A stretch of DNA of 64,000 bases. Source: Armatimonadota bacterium (lineage in GTDB: Bacteria; Armatimonadota; SYMT01). The stretch lies in assembly GCA_041690135.1 (NCBI GenBank), contig JAWLHY010000001.1, positions 1,248,001-1,312,000 on the forward strand, in the 5' to 3' direction. Positions 49,332-58,034 of this stretch are shown here, in pieces. The notes below the pieces were generated by a model. It ran no database searches, was not told where the DNA came from, and worked only from the letters and a program-made list of their open reading frames with translations. The translations under genes and the position numbers were made by a program. The number at the start of each line of letters is the position of its first letter. Position 1 is the stretch's first letter.

Positions 49332-49703
49332 TCAGCGGCACTCCACGCACAGTCCCGTTAACTCGGTGTGGTAACCGGTCACCTGGAAGCCGCTTGTTTC
49401 CACCGCCGCCTGCACCACCTCCTGCGGCAGCGACACCAGTACGTCCACCAGTTTTCCGCACCGGTGGCACACTGCATGGTCGTGCCGGTCGGTGCGCCGA
49501 TCGTACTGCGTGACTTCCCCGACTCGGATCTCCTGCAGGTGACCGTCCTCCGCCAGGGCGCTGAGGTTGCGGTAGACCGTCGCATACCCGATCCCAGGAA
49601 GCACCTGGCGTACGCGCTCATAGACCTGCGCCGCCGTCGGGTGATCGCCGGATCGTTCCACGATCTCGAGGATCGCCTGACGCTGTTTCGTCTGTCGCAT
49701 CAT
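49332..49703 (-). CDS. Fur family regulator (PerR-like)
   Basis: TKQRQAIL, HPTA, ATVYRNL, HDHAVCHRCG and CVEC motifs. Confidence 0.93.
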   Translation of the reverse strand: MMRQTKQRQAILEIVERSGDHPTAAQVYERVRQVLPGIGYATVYRNLSALAEDGHLQEIRVGEVTQYDRRTDRHDHAVCHRCGKLVDVLVSLPQEVVQAAVETSGFQVTGYHTELTGLCVECR

Positions 49704-50203
49704 CGGACAGACTCTAGGAAATAGACTTGCATCATCCTGGAGAGCGTTCTACCCAACTGGAGTGGTATGCCGCGCACGTTCCCGGCGGCCCGCTTCTTGG
49801 GGGTCCCATTCACCAGAACATTATACGCTTTCTGGGCTCCGATCTTTTTGCCGCTAAATGTGAAGTCGGTGCTGGTAGTCCATGAGCAGTGGGCGCCCGT
49901 CTTCTGCAGGGTGGTTCCGGCACAGGGCGGCTGGTCCCATGATGTCACTACGGAGTCCCAACGCTATCGTGGGGACCTTCCACACATCATGGGAGTTCTC
50001 CGGTACTTGGCGGTCGAGCCCGCATCACAGCATGGGTGACCGCCGGAGTTGCCGTCCCTTTCTGTTCCGTCTCCACCCTTGGCTCCCTCAGGGTCTTCTA
50101 TGCTCCGGGAGACTTTCATCGACTTTTTCTATTCGACACACGTATCTGGTGGATCTAGACTTAGCATGGCCCCCGCGCAAACAGACGCCCGGGGTGGAAA
50201 CGG

Positions 50204-51349
50204 GTGGAAGCCATGCGTTCAGCGGTCGAGACGGCGGAGAGAGTGGCGCGCGAGGCACTCGCGCCCTGGGCGGAGCATGTGGACCGGGAGGGTCGCTGGC
50301 CGGCGGAGTCTCGGGCGGCGCTCGGTGGAGCCGGGTTGCTTGGGCTCGCTGTCCCCGAAGCCTATGGAGGCCTCGGTGCTTCTCCGACCGTGGTGTCGGC
50401 GGTCGTGCGCACGCTGGCGGAGAGTTGTGCCTCCACGGCGATGATCTTCATGATGCACGTGTGCGCGCAGCAGGTGATCGCACAGGCGGAGGCGTTCCCC
50501 TTTCGTGAGGAGATTCTCCGGGCGATGGCCCGCGGGGAGCACCTCAGCACCCTGGCCTTCAGCGAGAAGGGCTCGCGGAGCCACTTCTGGGCGCCGGTGA
50601 GCCAGGCCGTGGCCGACGGAGACATCCATCGGCTCAGTGCGGAGAAGTCCTGGGTCACCAGCGCGGGACAGGCGGACAGTTACGTCGTGTCCACCCGCAG
50701 CACCGCGGCAGCGGAGATGACCGCTTCCACGCTTTACTATGTCCCGAACGGCGCCGCCGGGCTCAGCGTGGCGGGCTCTTGGTCTGGCCTCGGCCTTCGC
50801 GGGAATGCCAGCGCGCCGATGCGGCTCAAAAACGTGTCGGTGCCCGCTTCGCACCGCTTGAGCGGCGAGGGCGAAGGGTTCGGTGCGATGCTCAGCGTGG
50901 TCCTCCCCTGGTTTCAGCTCTGCAGCGCGTCCGTTTCCGTGGGGATCGCCGCGGCGGCGACGGAGGCCACCCGGCGCCACCTGATGGCCTCCAAACTGGA
51001 GCACCTGGACCAATCCCTGGCCTCCCTGATGAACCTGCGCGCGCGGTTGGCCCAGATGCAGATCGCCGTCGACACCCAGCGCGTGTTCCTGAACCACGTG
51101 GCGGGCCGGATGGAGAATCCCGGCCCCGACACGATGCTGGCAGTGCTGGAGAGCAAAGCCGCCGCCGCCGAGGTGGCGCTCGAGGTGACCGATCTGGCGA
51201 TGCGGACCTGCGGAGGCGCCGCGTTTAGCCGGCACCTGGGTGTGGAGCGGAATTTCCGTGATGCCCGCGCCGGGGCGGTGATGGCCCCCACGACCGACGT
51301 ACTGCATGATTTCATCGGCAAGGCACTCCTTGAGATGCCGCTGTTCTGA
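50204..51349 (+). CDS. Acyl-CoA dehydrogenase-fold flavoprotein
   Basis: VPEAYGGLG, LAFSE.GS, KSWVTS, GLRGNAS, CGG and ERNFRDAR motifs. Confidence 0.92.
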   Translation: MEAMRSAVETAERVAREALAPWAEHVDREGRWPAESRAALGGAGLLGLAVPEAYGGLGASPTVVSAVVRTLAESCASTAMIFMMHVCAQQVIAQAEAFPFREEILRAMARGEHLSTLAFSEKGSRSHFWAPVSQAVADGDIHRLSAEKSWVTSAGQADSYVVSTRSTAAAEMTASTLYYVPNGAAGLSVAGSWSGLGLRGNASAPMRLKNVSVPASHRLSGEGEGFGAMLSVVLPWFQLCSASVSVGIAAAATEATRRHLMASKLEHLDQSLASLMNLRARLAQMQIAVDTQRVFLNHVAGRMENPGPDTMLAVLESKAAAAEVALEVTDLAMRTCGGAAFSRHLGVERNFRDARAGAVMAPTTDVLHDFIGKALLEMPLF

Positions 51350-51387
51350 TGCCGCTCTTTTGAAGCCGCTTACTTGAGGGTACCCCT

Positions 51388-52221
51388 ATGGACCGTCCGA
51401 TCTTGATTGGCGCCGTCGCCTACGACCAGCGTGTGGTCCCGATCTGGGAAGGCATGCGCGACTACTTCCGCGAGGCCGGCATGCCGATCGACTACGTCCT
51501 CTACTCGAACTACGACCGGCAGGTAGAGGCCCTCCTGGACCGGCAAATCGATATCGCCTGGAACACCAACCTGGCCTGGCTGAAGGTCTGTCGCCGCACC
51601 GACAACCGCTGCCGGGCGCTCGCGATGCGGGATGTGGACGCCGATTTCAAGACCGTTTTCGTGGCGCGGACGGACAGCGGCATCCAGTCGCTCGCCGATA
51701 TTCATGGCAAGCGTCTGGCCCTCGGCTCCGCCGACTCCGGTCAGGCCGCCATCCTTCCCATTGAGTTTCTCCGCGAAGCCGGCGTGGATGCCGAGCGAGA
51801 GTGCCGGGTGTCCCGGTTCAACCTGGACGTGGGCAAACACGGCGACACGGGCACCAGCGAGCTGGAAGTTCTGCGCGCCCTCCGTGACGGGGAGGCGGAT
51901 GCGGGCGCCATGGCGGACTCTACCTGGATCCGGCAGGTCACCGAAGGACGGGTGGACCCGACGCAGGTGCGCGCGATCTGGACCTCTCCCGGCTACTGCC
52001 ACTGCAACTTCACGGTCCTGGAAGATTTCCCCGAAGAAGTCGGGCGCAACTGGACCGGCACTCTCCTGACGATGACCTACGACAATCCTCGCTGGCGGGA
52101 GTTGATGGACCTGGAGGGCCTCAAGCGCTGGCTGGAGGCCACGCCGGAGGTGATGAAGGGCTACGATAGCCTCTGGGAAGCGGTGGAGCGCCAGGGCCTG
52201 ACCCGCAACTGGCCGTCGTGA
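51388..52221 (+). CDS. PhnD/SsuA-type binding-protein-fold protein without a signal peptide
   Basis: Y..Y...VEAL....IDIAW, GIQSLADIHGKRLALG..DS and GEADAG motifs. Confidence 0.85.
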   Translation: MDRPILIGAVAYDQRVVPIWEGMRDYFREAGMPIDYVLYSNYDRQVEALLDRQIDIAWNTNLAWLKVCRRTDNRCRALAMRDVDADFKTVFVARTDSGIQSLADIHGKRLALGSADSGQAAILPIEFLREAGVDAERECRVSRFNLDVGKHGDTGTSELEVLRALRDGEADAGAMADSTWIRQVTEGRVDPTQVRAIWTSPGYCHCNFTVLEDFPEEVGRNWTGTLLTMTYDNPRWRELMDLEGLKRWLEATPEVMKGYDSLWEAVERQGLTRNWPS

Positions 52222-53495
52222 GTTCCCGAATGGAAGAGTTTCCGCAGCCGGCAGCGCTGGTCGAGGGCGGCGCACTGGAAGTGGGCAACGGCCTGCTGAT
52301 GCTTCTTCGCGAAGCCATGGAGCCGCTCCCGCCGGACGCCGTGGTGGCCGTACGCGCCTCCCACCCCACGGTGGCTCACGACCTGCCCGCCTGGTGCCGG
52401 GTGATGGCGCATACGTACATGGGTGCGGCGTCCGGCCCGGATGGAACGGTCTACTACTTCCGGAAGAGCCCCTTCCTCCCCATCGCCACCGAAGAGCGGC
52501 CGGACTGGGGGGTGCGGATGCCCCGTCGCGACAACGGGGAACTCCACACACGGGATTGGATGGTCGGCCGGGTGGAGGCGGTGCCGGACCGGGCGACCAC
52601 CACCACCGGATTCGCGCCGCGTGGAGCCGTAGTAGAGCAGGGCGCGCCGGCTTTCGACTTCACCATCAACGAGCGCTCCGCGGTGTGGGCGGCGGAGGTC
52701 GCGGATCTCTACGAGCAGGCGACGGCCAACCAGTGGGACGCCTCTCGCGATATTCCGTGGGACCGCCTGGAGCCGCTGCCGGAACCGCTGGAGCGGGCTG
52801 TCTGCCAGTTGATGACGTTTCTGACGGAGAACGAGTACTCTGCTCTCTACGTCCCCGCGAAGTTCGTCCCGCGCATCAACCCGCAGTTCAATGAAGTCGT
52901 GATGTTCCTCTGCACGCAGATGATGGATGAATCACGGCACATCGAGGCTTTCACCAAGCGTGCCCTGGCCAACGGCGGCGGGCTCCAGTACTCGGCCGCG
53001 TCAACCCAGCTCAGCCTGAAGACGCTGTTCGATCAACACGACTTCACCTCCGCCTCCTTCCTCCTCTCCGTGCTTGGCGAGGGGACCTTCCTGGATCTCC
53101 TGCGGTTCATCGAGACGCACGCGCCGGACCCGGTAACCGCCGAGATCTGTCGCCGCGCGCGCGTGGACGAGACGCGCCACGTGCATTTCGGGATGGCCCA
53201 CATGCGCTACTACCTCGCGCAGGACCCGGCCAACTATGAGCACCTCGAACGGGCGGTGCGGGAGCGGGCCGCGTTCATGCAGTCGGTGACGGAGGTGAGC
53301 CCGCGGGTCCAGGAAGCGCTGGCGATCCTCGCGGCGGGTGGCTTGAACGCGGACCGCCTGCCGGAAGGGCTGGCGAAAGTGCGGGCTCTCGTGAGTGAGA
53401 TGCACGAGCACCGCATGCGCCGTCTCTTGGCCGCCGGCTTCTCCGCGGAGCAGGCAGTCGAGATCTCCCGCCTCCACACCCCGAACTTCATGTAA
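52218..53495 (+). CDS. TusA/SirA-like domain fused to a diiron ferritin-like domain
   Basis: HDLPAWCR in the N-terminal domain; ENE, DESRH, EGTF and DETRH metal-ligand motifs. Confidence 0.85.
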   Translation: MSSRMEEFPQPAALVEGGALEVGNGLLMLLREAMEPLPPDAVVAVRASHPTVAHDLPAWCRVMAHTYMGAASGPDGTVYYFRKSPFLPIATEERPDWGVRMPRRDNGELHTRDWMVGRVEAVPDRATTTTGFAPRGAVVEQGAPAFDFTINERSAVWAAEVADLYEQATANQWDASRDIPWDRLEPLPEPLERAVCQLMTFLTENEYSALYVPAKFVPRINPQFNEVVMFLCTQMMDESRHIEAFTKRALANGGGLQYSAASTQLSLKTLFDQHDFTSASFLLSVLGEGTFLDLLRFIETHAPDPVTAEICRRARVDETRHVHFGMAHMRYYLAQDPANYEHLERAVRERAAFMQSVTEVSPRVQEALAILAAGGLNADRLPEGLAKVRALVSEMHEHRMRRLLAAGFSAEQAVEISRLHTPNFM

Positions 53496-53861: not shown

Positions 53862-55589
53862 GTGAGCCAGGGACAAGAAGTGGAGAAGACGGTAACTTCG
53901 GCGGACTCCGCGGGTCGTCGCGAAGTGCCGACCGACTACATCCGGGAAGCGATCAAGGAAGACCTCCGCAACGGACGGTTCGACCGCGTGCACACGCGCT
54001 TTCCTCCGGAGCCGAACGCCTACCTGCACATCGGGCACGCGAAGGCCGTCTGGATCGACTACGGCATCGCGCTGGACTTCGGCGGGTTGTTCAACCTGCG
54101 CTTCGATGATACGAACCCGGTGCGCGAAGATCAGGAGTTTGTGGACGGCATTATCGAGGACGTGCGCTGGCTCGGTGCCGACTGGGGTGACCGGCTCTGC
54201 TTCGCATCCGACTACTTCGAGCAGATGTACGCGTGGGCTCTTGACCTGATCCGCAAGGGTAAGGCCTACGTGTGCGATCTTACGGCGGAGGAGCTGAGCG
54301 CCACCCGCGGCACCCTCACCACTCCGGGCCAGGAAAGTCCCTTCCGGAACCGCAGCGTGGAGGAGAACCTGGACCTGTTCGCGCGCATGCGGGCCGGCGA
54401 ATTTCCCGACGGCGCCCGGACGCTCCGCGCGAAGATCGACATGGCCTCGCCGAACATGGTCATGCGCGATCCCGTGATGTACCGCATCCTTCATACCAAG
54501 CACCATCGCCAGGGCGATAAGTGGTGCATCTACCCGACCTACGACTGGGCCCACGGCCTCGAGGATTCCATCGAGGGGGTCACCCACTCCCTCTGCTCGC
54601 AGGAGTACGAGATCCACCGGCCGCTCTATGACTGGTTCCTGGATGAACTGGACATCTATCATCCGCGCCAGATCGAGTTCGCGCGCCTGAACCTGACCCA
54701 CACCGTGATGAGCAAGCGCCGCTTCATCGAGCTGGTGAACGGAGGGCACGTCCAGGGCTACGACGATCCCCGGCTGCCGACGCTCGCCGGGCTGCGCCGC
54801 CGCGGCTACACGCCCGAAGCGATTCGGGAGTTCTGCCGTCGGATCGGCGTCTCTAAGACGGATAGCTGCGTGGAAGTGGCGTACCTGGAAGACTGCGTCC
54901 GCGAGGACCTGAACCGGTGGTCGCCCCGCGTGATGTCTGTGCTGGACCCGCTGAAGGTGGTGCTGGTGAACTACCCCGAGGGCCAGACGGAAGAGCTCGA
55001 CGTCATCAACAACCCCGAGGATCCCGCCGCCGGAACCCGCAAGGTGACCTTCGCCCGCGAGCTGTACATCGAGCGCGACGACTTCCGCGAGGAGCCGCCG
55101 CCCAAGTTCTTCCGGCTGGCTCCCGGTCGTGAGGTCCGGCTGCGGAACGCCTACCTGGTCCGGTGCGTGGACGTGATCAAGGACGCGGAAGGCAACGTCA
55201 CCGAGGTCCACTGCACCTACGATCCGGAGACCCGCGGTGGGGATGCGCCGGACGGACGCAAGGTAAAGGCTACCCTGCACTGGCTCGCGGCCCCGGCAGC
55301 CGTTCCGGCCGAGGTCCGGCTCTACGACCACCTGTTCGTGAAACCGGATCCGGACGACGTGGAGCCCGGCCAGACCTACTTCGACAATCTCAACCCGAAC
55401 TCGCTGAAGGTGGTCTCGGGATTTGTGGAACCGGCCGTAGCCGAAGCGGCCCCCGGCACGCGCTACCAGTTCGAGCGCCTGGGTTACTTCTGCGTGGACA
55501 AGGAATCCACGCCGGAGAGACCCGTCTTCAACCGGACAGTTACCCTCCGCGATACCTGGGCCAAAATCGAAAAGCGCACGGGCAAGTAA
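53862..55589 (+). CDS. glnS: Glutamine--tRNA ligase
   Basis: [34 protein letters not shown] and QFERLGYF motifs. Confidence 0.97.
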
Positions 55590-55716
55590 CCGCCTGATCG
55601 TATTCGTGACGGCCGACCACCGCCCCAACGGAGGAGGCGCAGGTCCGGAGCACAAAACCTATGGGCGTGAAGCGCAAGACGGACTTGCGCTTCACGCCCT
55701 TTGCATTTGGCACAGC

Positions 55717-57687
55717 ATGAAACCTCTCCCTCTCGCTTATCGCCAGGTCCACCTCGACTTCCACACTTCGGAACTGATCACCGGGATCGGCCGCGACTTC
55801 GATGCCGGCCGCTTCGCGCGCACGCTCAAAGAAGCGCACGTTAATTCCGTGACCTGCTTCTCCCGCTGCCACCACGGGATGATCTACCACGACACCCGGT
55901 TCCCCGCGCGGCATCCGCACCTGGAAGTCAACCTGCTCCAGGAGCAGATCGAGGCCTGTCACGCGGAGGGCATCCGGGTGCCGATCTACATCAGCGTGGG
56001 CTTCGACGAGTTCATGGCCCGGCGCCATCCGGAATGGGTGGAACTGGGCGGGGACGGAAAGGTCCGGGGCGCGGCGCCGCTGGAGGCGGGCTGGCGCAAA
56101 CTCTGTCTCAATACCCCCTACATCGATTACGTCTCCGAGCAGACGCAGGAAGTGCTGTCCCTCTTCCCCACGGATGGGCTGTTTTTCGACATCATCCACC
56201 AGGGGCCGTGCTGTTGTCGCTGGTGCATGGAGGGCATGCAGGCGGAGGGCGTCGACCCGGAAGACGAAGGTCAGCGGAAGGCCTACGCGCGAGAAGTGCT
56301 GAACCGCCTCCGGACACGCATCACCCGGGAGGTGCGCGAGGTCAACCCGGACTGCCTGATCTTCTGGAACAGCGGCCACGTGGACCCCACCTTCCGGCCG
56401 GTGCTCCACACCTTCTCCCACCTGGAGATCGAGAGCCTCCCCAGTGGCGGGTGGGGCTATGATCATTTCCCCACTTCGGTCCGCTACGCCCGCAACCTGG
56501 GCCTCGACCACCTGGGGATGACCGGCAAGTTCCACAAGACCTGGGCCGGTTTCGGGGAGTTCAAGAACCCTCCGGCCCTGGAGTACGACTGCTTCACCGC
56601 CCTGGCCGAAGGCAGCAAATGCTCCATCGGCGACCAGCTCCATCCCAACGGGGAGCTGGACCCCGCCACGTACGAGCTCATCGGGGGCGTCTATGCGCAA
56701 GTGGCAGCCCGCGAGCCGTGGTGCGCCGGGGCGAAGGCGGTGACGGAGATCGCCATCTTCAATCCGGAGGCCATTGGGGTCCACGATGGCCGGGTCGATA
56801 CCTCCGCGGGTGGCGCGCACCGGATGCTGGTGGAGGCCCACTACCAGCACGACATGGTGGACGAGGAGATGGACTGGTCTCGCTACCGGGTCCTGATCTT
56901 ACCGGACAAAATCCGCCTCCACGACGCGCTCGCCGCGAAGTTCCGGGCTTATCTCGCCCAGGGAGGCAGCCTCATCGCCTCCCATCTCTCGGGGTTGGCC
57001 GCGGACCGCGACGAGTTTGTTCTGCCGGAACTCGGCGTGACCTACCGCGGTGTAGCGCCCTTTTCACCGGACTACGTGGCGCCGGGACCGGAGATCGCCG
57101 CGGGCATCCCGGCGAGCCAGCACGTGATGTACGAGCGCGGCCTGGAGGTGGAGACGAAAGGCGCGGAGGAGTTGGCACGCGTTTGGCACCCCTATTTCAA
57201 CCGCACCTACGCGCACTTCTGCAGCCACCGTCATACCCCTGCGGAGAAAGAGAGCCCCTTCCCGGCTGTAACCCGGAACGGGCGGGTGATCTACTTCGCC
57301 CATCCCCTCTTCGCCGCGTTCAAACAGCACGGCCTTCGGGTCTATAAGCAGCTCTTCCTGAACGCCCTTCGCCTGCTGCTTCCCGAGCCCCTGATCGCGA
57401 CCGACGCCCCCTCCACGGCCCGGATCTCGCTCGCCCGCCAGGACAATCCGGTCCGTACGATCGTCCATCTCCTCCACTACATCCCGGAACAGCGCTACCG
57501 CGAGACGCCCATGGTCGAGGAAGCGCTGCCGCTCTTCAACGTGAGCCTGGCCGTCCGCCTGGACCACGAACCCGCCCGCGTTTACCTCGCCCCGGATGGC
57601 GCTTCCCTCCCTTTCACCTGGTCCAACGGCAGGGTTCACCTCACCGTCCCTGAAGCTCGCGGCCACGTGATGGTGGTGTTCGAATGA
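55717..57687 (+). CDS. Glycoside hydrolase (GH29/GH42-like, with beta-galactosidase trimerisation domain)
   Basis: RQVHLDFHTS, CHHG, DGLFFD, EIESLPSGGWGY and MTGKFH motifs. Confidence 0.85.
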   Translation: MKPLPLAYRQVHLDFHTSELITGIGRDFDAGRFARTLKEAHVNSVTCFSRCHHGMIYHDTRFPARHPHLEVNLLQEQIEACHAEGIRVPIYISVGFDEFMARRHPEWVELGGDGKVRGAAPLEAGWRKLCLNTPYIDYVSEQTQEVLSLFPTDGLFFDIIHQGPCCCRWCMEGMQAEGVDPEDEGQRKAYAREVLNRLRTRITREVREVNPDCLIFWNSGHVDPTFRPVLHTFSHLEIESLPSGGWGYDHFPTSVRYARNLGLDHLGMTGKFHKTWAGFGEFKNPPALEYDCFTALAEGSKCSIGDQLHPNGELDPATYELIGGVYAQVAAREPWCAGAKAVTEIAIFNPEAIGVHDGRVDTSAGGAHRMLVEAHYQHDMVDEEMDWSRYRVLILPDKIRLHDALAAKFRAYLAQGGSLIASHLSGLAADRDEFVLPELGVTYRGVAPFSPDYVAPGPEIAAGIPASQHVMYERGLEVETKGAEELARVWHPYFNRTYAHFCSHRHTPAEKESPFPAVTRNGRVIYFAHPLFAAFKQHGLRVYKQLFLNALRLLLPEPLIATDAPSTARISLARQDNPVRTIVHLLHYIPEQRYRETPMVEEALPLFNVSLAVRLDHEPARVYLAPDGASLPFTWSNGRVHLTVPEARGHVMVVFE

Positions 57688-57749
57688 GGGTGATCGCAGT
57701 TGGCAATAATTGCCATCAAGAGGTAGACTCTGATCCAGGAGGAAGATCC

Positions 57750-58034
57750 ATGGCGGTCGAAACAATCAACTTCTCCTTACCGGAGCCACTCAAGCGTTTC
57801 GTTGATGAGCGAGTAGCCGGAGGCGGTTACAGCAGTGCGAGCGAGTACTTGCGCGAACTGATTCGAAAGGATCAGGAACGGCAAGACCGGCAGCACTTGC
57901 TGGTCGAAAAACTGGAAGCATTGCTGCTCGAAGGGTTGAATAGCGGCGAAGCAATCGAATGGACGCCGGAATACCGGGCTCAACGTCGGGAACGTCTGAT
58001 TGCGAGAGCTAAAGCGGAAGGTTGCCGGCCGTAG
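57750..58034 (+). CDS. parD: Type II TA antitoxin, ParD family
   Basis: INFSLPEPLKRFVDERVAGGGYSSASEYLRELIR...LLEGLNSG. Confidence 0.9.
   Translation: MAVETINFSLPEPLKRFVDERVAGGGYSSASEYLRELIRKDQERQDRQHLLVEKLEALLLEGLNSGEAIEWTPEYRAQRRERLIARAKAEGCRP

Follow-up and report, generated by a model that had tools for sequence, protein, structure and literature searches.

The closest described relatives of the genes reported here are those of the Mycobacterium tuberculosis cassette Rv1679-Rv1681. The first two have given their names to NCBIfam families with no function assigned, the 'Rv1679 family acyl-CoA dehydrogenase' (NF049984; ACAD, acyl-CoA dehydrogenase) and the 'Rv1680 family SBP-like protein' (NF049985; SBP, substrate-binding protein); the third is covered by the 'Rv1681 family radical SAM protein' model (NF049973; SAM, S-adenosylmethionine). 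A structure-based annotation names one of the three genes as a phosphonate transporter component (PMC8562490), and a hypoxia proteome lists Rv1679 as detected in one clinical strain (PMC5017210). Our literature search (subscription journals not covered) returned no functional study on Rv1679, Rv1680, Rv1681, moeX, fadE16 or the trio of genes described below, and no characterised pathway that matches them. The trio lies in a window of 64,000 nucleotides from an Armatimonadota bacterium (GenBank assembly GCA_041690135.1, contig JAWLHY010000001.1, positions 1,248,001 to 1,312,000 of the forward strand), and encodes an ACAD-like flavoprotein, a PhnD-like protein and a fusion of a TusA-like domain to a ferritin-like candidate di-metal domain. 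An earlier note on this DNA had presented the trio as a candidate undescribed enzyme system; two of the families turn out to be catalogued already, while the function of the system is indeed uncharacterised. We estimate at about one in two the probability that the trio represents a di-metal version, dependent on oxygen, of a cytoplasmic cassette that is widespread and already catalogued, and whose radical-SAM variant includes the Rv1679-Rv1681 families.

As in the mycobacterial cassette, an ACAD-like gene is followed by a PhnD-like gene and, directly after it, by a third gene whose product would begin with a TusA-like domain. NF049984 is the best NCBIfam model for the ACAD-like protein (P0001), with 454.6 bits over model positions 11-371 of 371, and NF049985 is the best one for the PhnD-like protein (P0002), with 358.6 bits over positions 2-268 of 268. 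Both scores lie below the curated cut-offs (600 and 400, respectively); a mycobacterial-type relative of P0001 reaches 637.6 bits on NF049984. The locus differs from the Rv1679-Rv1681 cassette in that its third enzyme (P0003) is of the ferritin-like di-metal type and not a radical SAM protein, and in that no Rv1678-type membrane protein is found upstream. In the source genome, the best match to NF049973 scores 59 bits against a cut-off of 380 and lies on another contig.

The two versions of the third gene alternate behind the same pair, a point that the earlier note had missed. Two Mycobacteriales genomes (G248 and G327) have Rv1679 and Rv1680 matches above the cut-offs and an Rv1681-family radical SAM protein in third place, in the order Rv1678-family membrane protein, ACAD, SBP-like protein, radical SAM protein. 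The third protein of G248 scores 537.6 bits on NF049973, and the G327 protein is 66% identical. The TusA-ferritin gene occupies the third place in the other six Mycobacteriales carriers and in most of the other Actinomycetota carriers. Moreover, the ACAD, PhnD-like and radical SAM genes stand in a row on a plasmid of Mycolicibacterium vanbaalenii (NZ_CP126902.1; 3336-12261 of the extracted locus L134), and in two other Actinomycetota loci the ACAD/PhnD-like pair is followed by DUF2064, epimerase and CMD genes and by a radical SAM gene whose product is 38% identical to the Rv1681 type. The flanks of the M. vanbaalenii plasmid locus are rich in thiol-redox genes, with annotations as CMD family, deiodinase-like and glutaredoxin-domain proteins, a major facilitator superfamily transporter, CcdA and a protein disulfide oxidoreductase. 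The residues that are invariant in the PhnD-like family are mostly identical across the diiron-type and the radical-SAM-type clusters, and a few of them, such as K150, are only nearly invariant. Because these residues are mostly kept across all cluster types, the ACAD-like/PhnD-like pair is the constant core of the cassette, and the third enzyme, di-metal or radical SAM, is what varies.

A TusA-like domain, in most cases without the active cysteine of TusA, appears to stand at the N-terminus of both alternatives for the third enzyme. For two Rv1681-type proteins, TusA is the best Pfam match to the N-terminal 70 residues (E about 1e-3); the match spans profile positions 13/14 to 62/70, which is also the portion matched in P0003. 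When the ferritin family (74 sequences) was compared by hhalign with an alignment of 24 Rv1681-type proteins, residues 30-89 aligned to residues 6-65 (E 3e-4); with a single Rv1681-type sequence the match was weak (E 0.006). The tryptophan preceding the conserved cysteine is invariant in both families. The evidence for a domain common to the ferritin-type and Rv1681-type enzymes is no more than suggestive. A few rare fusions also join the same parts in other ways: ACAD with PhnD-like, PhnD-like with TusA-ferritin (19 members) and PhnD-like with the Rv1681-type radical SAM protein. Within the literature reached by our search (with the limit given above), the di-metal variant, its alternation with the radical SAM enzyme, the shared adaptor and the TusA-DsrE-linked paralogues discussed below are not described.

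To determine how consistently the three genes occur together, a pattern scan was run over one genome per species. It matched at least 599 stretches, of which tblastn confirmed at least 556 as relatives of P0003, and the best 80 of these, extended by up to 6 kb to either side, were examined by tblastn with P0001 and P0002. The complete, adjacent trio was found in 53 of the 80 loci, 45 with the order ACAD-PhnD-ferritin and eight with the order ferritin-ACAD-PhnD. Eleven further loci hold a ferritin homologue without the TusA-like domain, none of them with a PhnD-like neighbour; in three (L008, L009 and L011) the ferritin gene stands behind TusA and DsrE-like genes instead; one (L069) has a degraded PhnD-like gene; and eight are truncated on one side or both because the contig ends, L004 among them, which is also partnerless over 6 kb downstream. 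The remaining four combine a PhnD-like and a ferritin gene and are considered below. Where the match reaches the TusA-like domain (68 loci), nine loci with adequate flanks lack the full trio, namely the four just mentioned, the three with TusA and DsrE, L004 and L069, and six more are cut by contig ends. Judging by record titles, the trios come from nine phyla (Planctomycetota, Sericytochromatia, Chloroflexota, Actinomycetota, Acidobacteriota, Bacillota, Myxococcota, 'Proteobacteria' and Bdellovibrionota), with many soil bacteria among the carriers. Paenibacillus cymbidii, Paenibacillus chartarius and Effusibacillus consociatus are cultured species that carry the di-metal type. The median gap between the ACAD stop and the PhnD start is 18 bp (n=53), and that between the PhnD stop and the ferritin start is estimated at -13 bp (n=41).

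No recurrent fourth gene accompanies the trio: in an all-against-all clustering of 2917 open reading frames (ORFs), no further family occurred in more than nine of the 80 loci. The largest genuine family, an ATP-binding cassette (ABC) ATPase, is present in eight loci and lies on the opposite strand in the representative locus. No permease/ATPase, flavin reductase, DszA-like protein, CoA ligase or CoA transferase recurs across the 80 loci, and the small ORFs (25-110 aa) conserved within 900 bp of the trios were only fragments or shadows of the trio genes, with no precursor peptide among them. Long antisense ORFs opposite the trio genes recur in 30-67 loci (ORF clusters 1 and 4-8); these are shadow ORFs and not extra genes. 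Could the three genes be chance neighbours, that is, a beta-oxidation ACAD, the orphan binding protein of a transporter and an iron-storage ferritin-like protein? Each of the proteins does match a common family, and the distribution is patchy: carriers number 4 of the 201 genomes sampled from the phylum to which the window belongs, 14 of 301 from the Actinomycetota (a count that includes the unpublished genome G153) and 8 of 151 from the Mycobacteriales. Nevertheless, 53 adjacent trios in nine phyla, in a conserved order, tightly packed and with a high cross-phylum protein identity (45-65%), already contradict a chance neighbourhood, as do an ACAD-like protein without its catalytic base and a binding protein with neither leader nor transporter; we regard this explanation as extremely improbable. 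The linkage is far beyond chance, and the trio is a conserved, self-contained cytoplasmic module of three proteins. The co-occurrence across phyla, with no recurrent permease, is in agreement with the linked, transporter-free system of the earlier note.

In the window, the ACAD-like and PhnD-like genes are separated by exactly 38 bp. The 4-bp GTGA overlap of the second and third genes is valid only with the GTG at 52218 as the start of P0003; the alternative start, the ATG at 52230, leaves a gap of 8 bp and is the start of a public copy of 421 aa (P0004). The genes are tightly coupled under either start, and the linkage, as the note had it, stands. There is no ABC permease or ATPase in the operon. 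Table 1 gives the coordinates.

Table 1. Features of the trio locus, in window positions.
Feature	Position	Strand	Basis
P0001, ACAD-fold flavoprotein, Rv1679/FadE16-like family, 381 aa	50204..51349	+	Pfam, NCBIfam
P0002, PhnD-fold (type II binding-protein fold) protein, Rv1680-like family, without signal, 277 aa	51388..52221	+	
P0003, fusion of TusA-like domain, ordered linker and ferritin-like di-metal domain (candidate), 425 aa	52218..53495	+	
P0003, TusA-like domain, residues 13-82	52254..52463	+	AlphaFold2 model, profile against TusA
P0003, ferritin-like helical bundle, residues 153-423	52674..53486	+	AlphaFold2 model, Foldseek, alignment
Fur-family regulator gene, divergent, closest to PerR	49332..49703	-	PF01475, E 7.5e-24
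Divergent intergenic region between regulator and operon, 500 bp, presumably holding promoters	49704..50203		
Glutaminyl-tRNA synthetase (GlnRS) gene, downstream of the trio	53862-55589		

Each protein of the trio is without some feature that defines the family from which it derives, and the departures that the earlier note had read from the sequence proved real. The ACAD-like protein has the three ACAD domains of Pfam (PF02771, PF02770 and PF00441), all above gathering thresholds, and its family profile matches butyryl-CoA dehydrogenase Bcd (5ol2) with an E-value of 1.7e-66. It keeps the 'GG..F' and 'ER..RD' motifs, which we take to be FAD-binding. The motif 'IYEGTSEV' of 5ol2 and 2dvl, which contains the catalytic glutamate, aligns to 'VMAPTTDV' in the P0001 family, so that Ala361 takes the place of the glutamate, and M360-A361-P362 is invariant in 36 of 36 relatives. 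The classical catalytic glutamate is thus missing at the C-terminal 'YEG' position, and the helix-G region, the alternative site for this residue, holds an invariant His259. After Rv1679, the next NCBIfam models on P0001 are those of acryloyl-CoA reductase, 3-sulfinopropanoyl-CoA desulfinase (third-best, 2.3e-39, with a match of 4.6e-47 to structure 5af7) and SfnB (E 4.7e-34). The 3-sulfinopropionyl-CoA desulfinase is an ACAD relative that lacks the glutamate and performs a non-classical step.

The lost glutamate bears on a Dsz-like desulfurisation, the analogy that the earlier note had drawn. By this analogy, the ACAD-fold protein would be a monooxygenase dependent on reduced flavin, and the binding-fold protein would release sulfite as a cysteine desulfinase. 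An ACAD fold that has lost the classical glutamate and a cytoplasmic binding-fold protein are shared with DszC, DszB and the 3-sulfinopropionyl-CoA desulfinase, the SfnB model and that of DszC (E 4.2e-22) match P0001, and the analogy could also accommodate an invariant His-Cys pair and Arg81 in the PhnD-like protein, the TusA-like domain and a paralogue in a sulfur-relay context. However, P0001 is far closer to true dehydrogenases, as seen from the Bcd match and from the C-terminal ACAD models (60 bits for PF00441 against 30 for PF08028), and all scores on the models of this group are far below their cut-offs; the DszC model NF043015 gives 78.5 bits against 850 and covers only residues 12-260. 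P0002 falls in the PhnD/PtxB/AioX clade, and neither DszB nor MqnA or MqnD, to which the note had likened it, is among the matches listed for the top 50 Foldseek ranks. Neither a flavin reductase nor a DszA-like gene, nor DszD or a CoA ligase or transferase, recurs as a partner at the 80 loci, no DszB, DszA or DszD model having been run directly. Finally, a Dsz-like pathway leaves the radical SAM alternative unexplained. We consider it improbable; the sulfur theme of the note retains some support from the paralogue context described below, and membership in the Dsz pathway is unsupported.

The PhnD-like protein contains the Phosphonate-bd domain (PF12974, E 9e-37), and the best model outside its own family is that of a 'putative selenate ABC transporter substrate-binding protein' (E 4e-33). 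Its AlphaFold2 model has a mean predicted local distance difference test (pLDDT) score of 96.6, and Foldseek places PhnD (7s6g, E 1.2e-23) at the top, followed by PtxB, HtxB, ArrX and AioX, all of them binders of phosphorus or arsenic oxyanions. P0002 shares the fold of these periplasmic binders (TM-score about 0.7-0.75), and the S-N-Y stretch, W58 and the G-S-x-x-S loop align with them. It differs in having neither a leader nor transporter genes. As read from the alignment, no leader is present in 43 of 43 family sequences, which start at the first strand of the mature fold, and no linked permease recurs in the 80 loci, in agreement with the cytoplasmic PhnD-fold protein of the earlier note. 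The name of a phosphonate transporter is therefore doubtful, since there is no leader peptide and there are no transporter genes. Among the invariant residues are Y12, S40, Y42, W58, R81, D84, D116, S117, K150-H151-G152-D153 and H205-C206, which probably lie on the ligand-binding loops of the PhnD fold. The inserted G-K-H-G-D loop and the His-Cys pair are lacking in the aligned PhnD sequences and in the other periplasmic binders. The family comprises 135 clusters at 50% identity with E <= 1e-30 in the representative library; the long relatives there are tandem PhnD-like or other fusions, with no ACAD or ferritin fusions among them.

The AlphaFold2 model of the third protein (pLDDT 93.3, predicted TM-score 0.87) begins with a TusA-like domain, which an ordered linker, itself conserved, joins to a helical bundle. 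The strand and helix elements over residues 13-82 are those of the TusA fold. TusA of Pfam scores 23.9-27.3 bits on the protein, just below the threshold of 28.6 (E 3.4e-6, profile positions 14-68), and the family profile matches E. coli TusA (1dcj/3lvj) with an E-value of 3e-7. Val22 stands at the position of the active cysteine, where only 9 of 74 relatives have a cysteine. The second cysteine of TusA (C56) corresponds to C60 in the sequence W59-C60-R61 and is kept in 71 of 74 sequences.

The bundle is modelled with a pLDDT above 90, and the candidate metal ligands E204/E206, E238-x-x-H241, E288 and E318-x-x-H321 are invariant in 74 sequences. The nearest structures in Foldseek are R2-like ligand-binding oxidase (R2lox), VlmB, Chlamydia R2c (class Ic R2) and aldehyde-deformylating oxygenase (ADO), at 18-21% identity and E-values of about 1e-5 to 1e-4. 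R2lox (PDB 4hr0; 4ac8 from M. tuberculosis) is the best match by both structure and profile. In the profile alignment, both ExxH pairs of P0003 align with those of R2lox ('HIEAF' against 'HVEMF'), and Phe245 lies four residues past H241, like the phenylalanine of R2lox, at what we take to be the site of the radical tyrosine in class Ia R2. On the other hand, P0003 is only 18-21% identical to R2lox (Foldseek E about 2e-5) and scores 31.6 bits on its NCBIfam model NF006200, against a cut-off of 194; moreover, R2lox has neither the TusA-like domain nor the ordered linker of 70 residues. To our knowledge, the physiological function of R2lox itself is not known. The ferritin-like oxidase fold and the ligand set are also shared with the azoxy synthase VlmB, the AurF-type di-iron N-oxygenases and the cyanobacterial ADO (6d9f and 8wvr with E about 3e-5; 4rc5 with a TM-score of 0.79 on the target), whereas no N-oxygenation or alkane-pathway neighbours are seen beside P0003. 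Pfam gives weak matches to DUF455 and AurF, the latter with 16.1 bits against a cut-off of 29.6. A search of the ESM Atlas with P0003 returned only unnamed ferritin-like, TusA and DUF455 clusters, and a search of plasmids no full-length match. By its fold and its ligand set, the ferritin-like domain is a candidate di-metal carboxylate oxidase.

The likeness to R2 proteins raises the main rival to the oxygen-dependent enzyme variant of the cassette. By analogy, the third protein might not act on a small molecule but generate a radical or a post-translational modification, for example at the invariant His-Cys pair, in the PhnD-like or the ACAD-like protein. Two known pairs of systems offer models for such an installer, class I and class III ribonucleotide reductases and the oxygen-dependent and radical-SAM sulfatase maturases. 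The nearest structures of the bundle, R2lox and Chlamydia R2c, do belong to the R2 superfamily, with a phenylalanine at the tyrosyl position as in R2lox; the Rv1681-type proteins have a Fer4_12 domain, and the names given to them in some sources are those of activases or peptide maturases. The N-terminal adaptor common to both alternatives would suggest protein-protein docking, and fusions of the PhnD-like protein to either third enzyme exist. However, no glycyl-radical-type motif is present in the alignments of the PhnD-like (43 sequences) or ACAD-like (36 sequences) proteins, no precursor peptide is conserved beside the trio, and ferritin paralogues occur in contexts with no PhnD-like or ACAD protein. 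We consider an installer rather unlikely.

These paralogues give some support to the sulfur theme. Weak hints in the same direction are the desulfinase and SfnB models among the next matches of P0001 and the thiol-redox genes around the radical-SAM type on the M. vanbaalenii plasmid. The source genome has a second TusA-ferritin gene, with a product 53% identical, on contig 3 (60418-62833; 5918-8334 of the extracted locus L133). It stands directly behind a bona fide TusA gene (38.2 bits, above the threshold) and a DsrE/DsrF-like gene (57.7 bits), and the same arrangement is found at L008, L009 and L011, none of which has ACAD or PhnD-like genes. In a quick maximum-likelihood tree, midpoint-rooted and with seven rows on a very long branch that are probably mis-cut ORFs, the contig-3 paralogue and the L008, L009 and L011 proteins form one clade with nine of the ten TusA-less homologues included and the eight ferritin-first trio proteins (Shimodaira-Hasegawa-like approximate likelihood ratio test, SH-aLRT, 100), and this clade is nested among the other trio proteins. 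P0003 thus resembles the TusA/DsrE sulfur relay in its N-terminal fold, in the retained second cysteine of TusA and in the position of its close paralogues behind TusA and DsrE-like genes; it differs from it in that the active cysteine is a valine, the domain is fused to a putative oxidase and there is no DsrE gene in the operon. In a Myxococcota locus with no ACAD nearby (L036, 7229-8515), a gene for a ThiF-family protein with a rhodanese domain comes right after the TusA-ferritin gene. A sulfur-related substrate is our best guess, which we put forward tentatively. A role of the TusA-like domain as a sulfur carrier is doubtful, because the active cysteine is mostly absent and Cys60 is lost in about 40% of the radical-SAM versions.

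Could the cassette process a small molecule containing selenium, or another metalloid such as arsenic, instead? The best model for the PhnD-like protein outside its own family is a putative selenate binder, and its fold relatives bind arsenite and arsenate. On a Miltoncostaea plasmid, the ACAD/PhnD-like pair occurs with DUF2064, GT2, CMD and radical SAM genes beside selA and selD. The selD gene of the source genome (contig 1, 1150877-1151803; L136; 369.6 bits) has one in-frame TGA, a hint that its SelD contains selenocysteine and that the organism uses selenium. selD lies 5.5 kb from the trio in genome G215 and is present in 13 of the 14 carrier genomes of the Actinomycetota sample. Against this, the background is high, with selD in 214 of 301 genomes, and 13 of 14 carriers compared with 201 of 287 other genomes is no clear excess, the related genomes not being independent and the tallies including ten unpublished genomes. 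Furthermore, the radical-SAM-type genome G248 shows no selD, and in the source genome about 148 kb separate selD from the trio, the gene lying upstream of the window by about 97 kb. A metalloid pathway seems to us a long shot. The Miltoncostaea oceani cluster (NZ_CP064357.1; L135, 1-11847) is transcribed from one strand and comprises genes for DoxX, CMD, radical SAM, GT2, DUF2064, ACAD, PhnD-like, hypothetical and radical SAM/SPASM proteins; it is divergent from selD and selA, and its gene set resembles that of the Actinomycetota DUF2064 loci, in a different order.

As for the surroundings of the trio in the window, the divergent regulator is best matched by the model of Mn-dependent PerR, with 110.4 bits against a cut-off of 200. 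The earlier note had suggested control by iron or peroxide. As a general feature this did not hold: tblastn found no match to the regulator in the 80 related loci, and a genome of the same family carries a 76% identical orthologue on a different contig from the trio. Such control may apply in the source organism, but it does not belong to the module as such. The divergent intergenic region contains two ORFs (82 and 90 aa) that match no family. Farther upstream, beyond the regulator, are genes for a P-type ATPase and for a Na/H exchanger that carries a TrkA_N domain. Beyond the GlnRS gene, a small ORF at 57684-58034 with ParD-antitoxin and ribbon-helix-helix matches directly follows a GHL6/Glyco_hydro_42M glycosidase-like gene (55606-57687). 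Rfam at gathering thresholds gave no match in 11 loci (138 kb), hence no riboswitch clue, and among public sequencing runs no RNA run is listed for the locus, the sole row being a DNA run of a soil metagenome with a 0.05 share of words. The source genome has 9.1 Mb, and the best matches to P0003 carry Gemmataceae names.

In the oxygen-dependent variant of the cassette that we favour, the three proteins would act as a unit on a small polar metabolite, probably sulfur-bearing or oxyanionic. The PhnD-fold protein may hold the substrate or catalyse a reaction on it through H205-C206 and K150-H151-G152-D153, and the TusA-like domain would dock the third enzyme to the core, as an adaptor rather than as a sulfur carrier. 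The di-metal domain would use O2 for a hard oxidation, of a C-H bond or of a heteroatom, which in other lineages the radical SAM enzyme would perform with no need of O2, and the flavoprotein may carry out a non-classical redox or elimination step, as the 3-sulfinopropionyl-CoA desulfinase does. Several observations weigh against this scheme or parts of it. None of the members of the cassette has a known substrate, ligand or activity. Four of the 80 loci (L013, L036, L062 and L078) pair a PhnD-like with a ferritin gene and have no ACAD within at least 3.3 kb. The active cysteine of TusA is absent in P0003 and in 65 of 74 relatives, and Ala or Tyr replaces the conserved cysteine in about 40% of the radical SAM proteins, whose N-terminal likeness to TusA lies below the Pfam threshold and reaches an hhalign probability of only 40%. 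The invariant set of the PhnD-like protein includes five aspartates, and a cation or a metal fits as well as an oxyanion. The link to sulfur is by association only, from paralogues that stand apart from ACAD and PhnD-like genes. Finally, the fused forms may be frameshift artefacts, and some of them have gaps in the domain match.

The cassette is widespread and strongly conserved across phyla (about 50% identity), and no member of it has a known reaction. A single core of two genes that is followed either by a presumably O2-dependent di-metal enzyme or by a radical SAM enzyme offers a practical entry point for enzyme discovery, as both versions of the cassette should yield the same product, one with oxygen and the other without it. 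A more speculative reading, which takes up the radical installer discussed above and is in our view rather improbable, is a new kind of radical system with interchangeable initiators. Two alternative partners would serve a core of flavoprotein and binding-fold protein, an R2-like di-metal protein where O2 is used and a radical SAM protein where it is not, both of them docking through the same cysteine-poor TusA-like adaptor. If true, such a system would parallel the duality of class I and class III ribonucleotide reductases and would include the unexplained Rv1679-Rv1681 genes. The trio gives comparative context to these three M. tuberculosis genes of unknown function.

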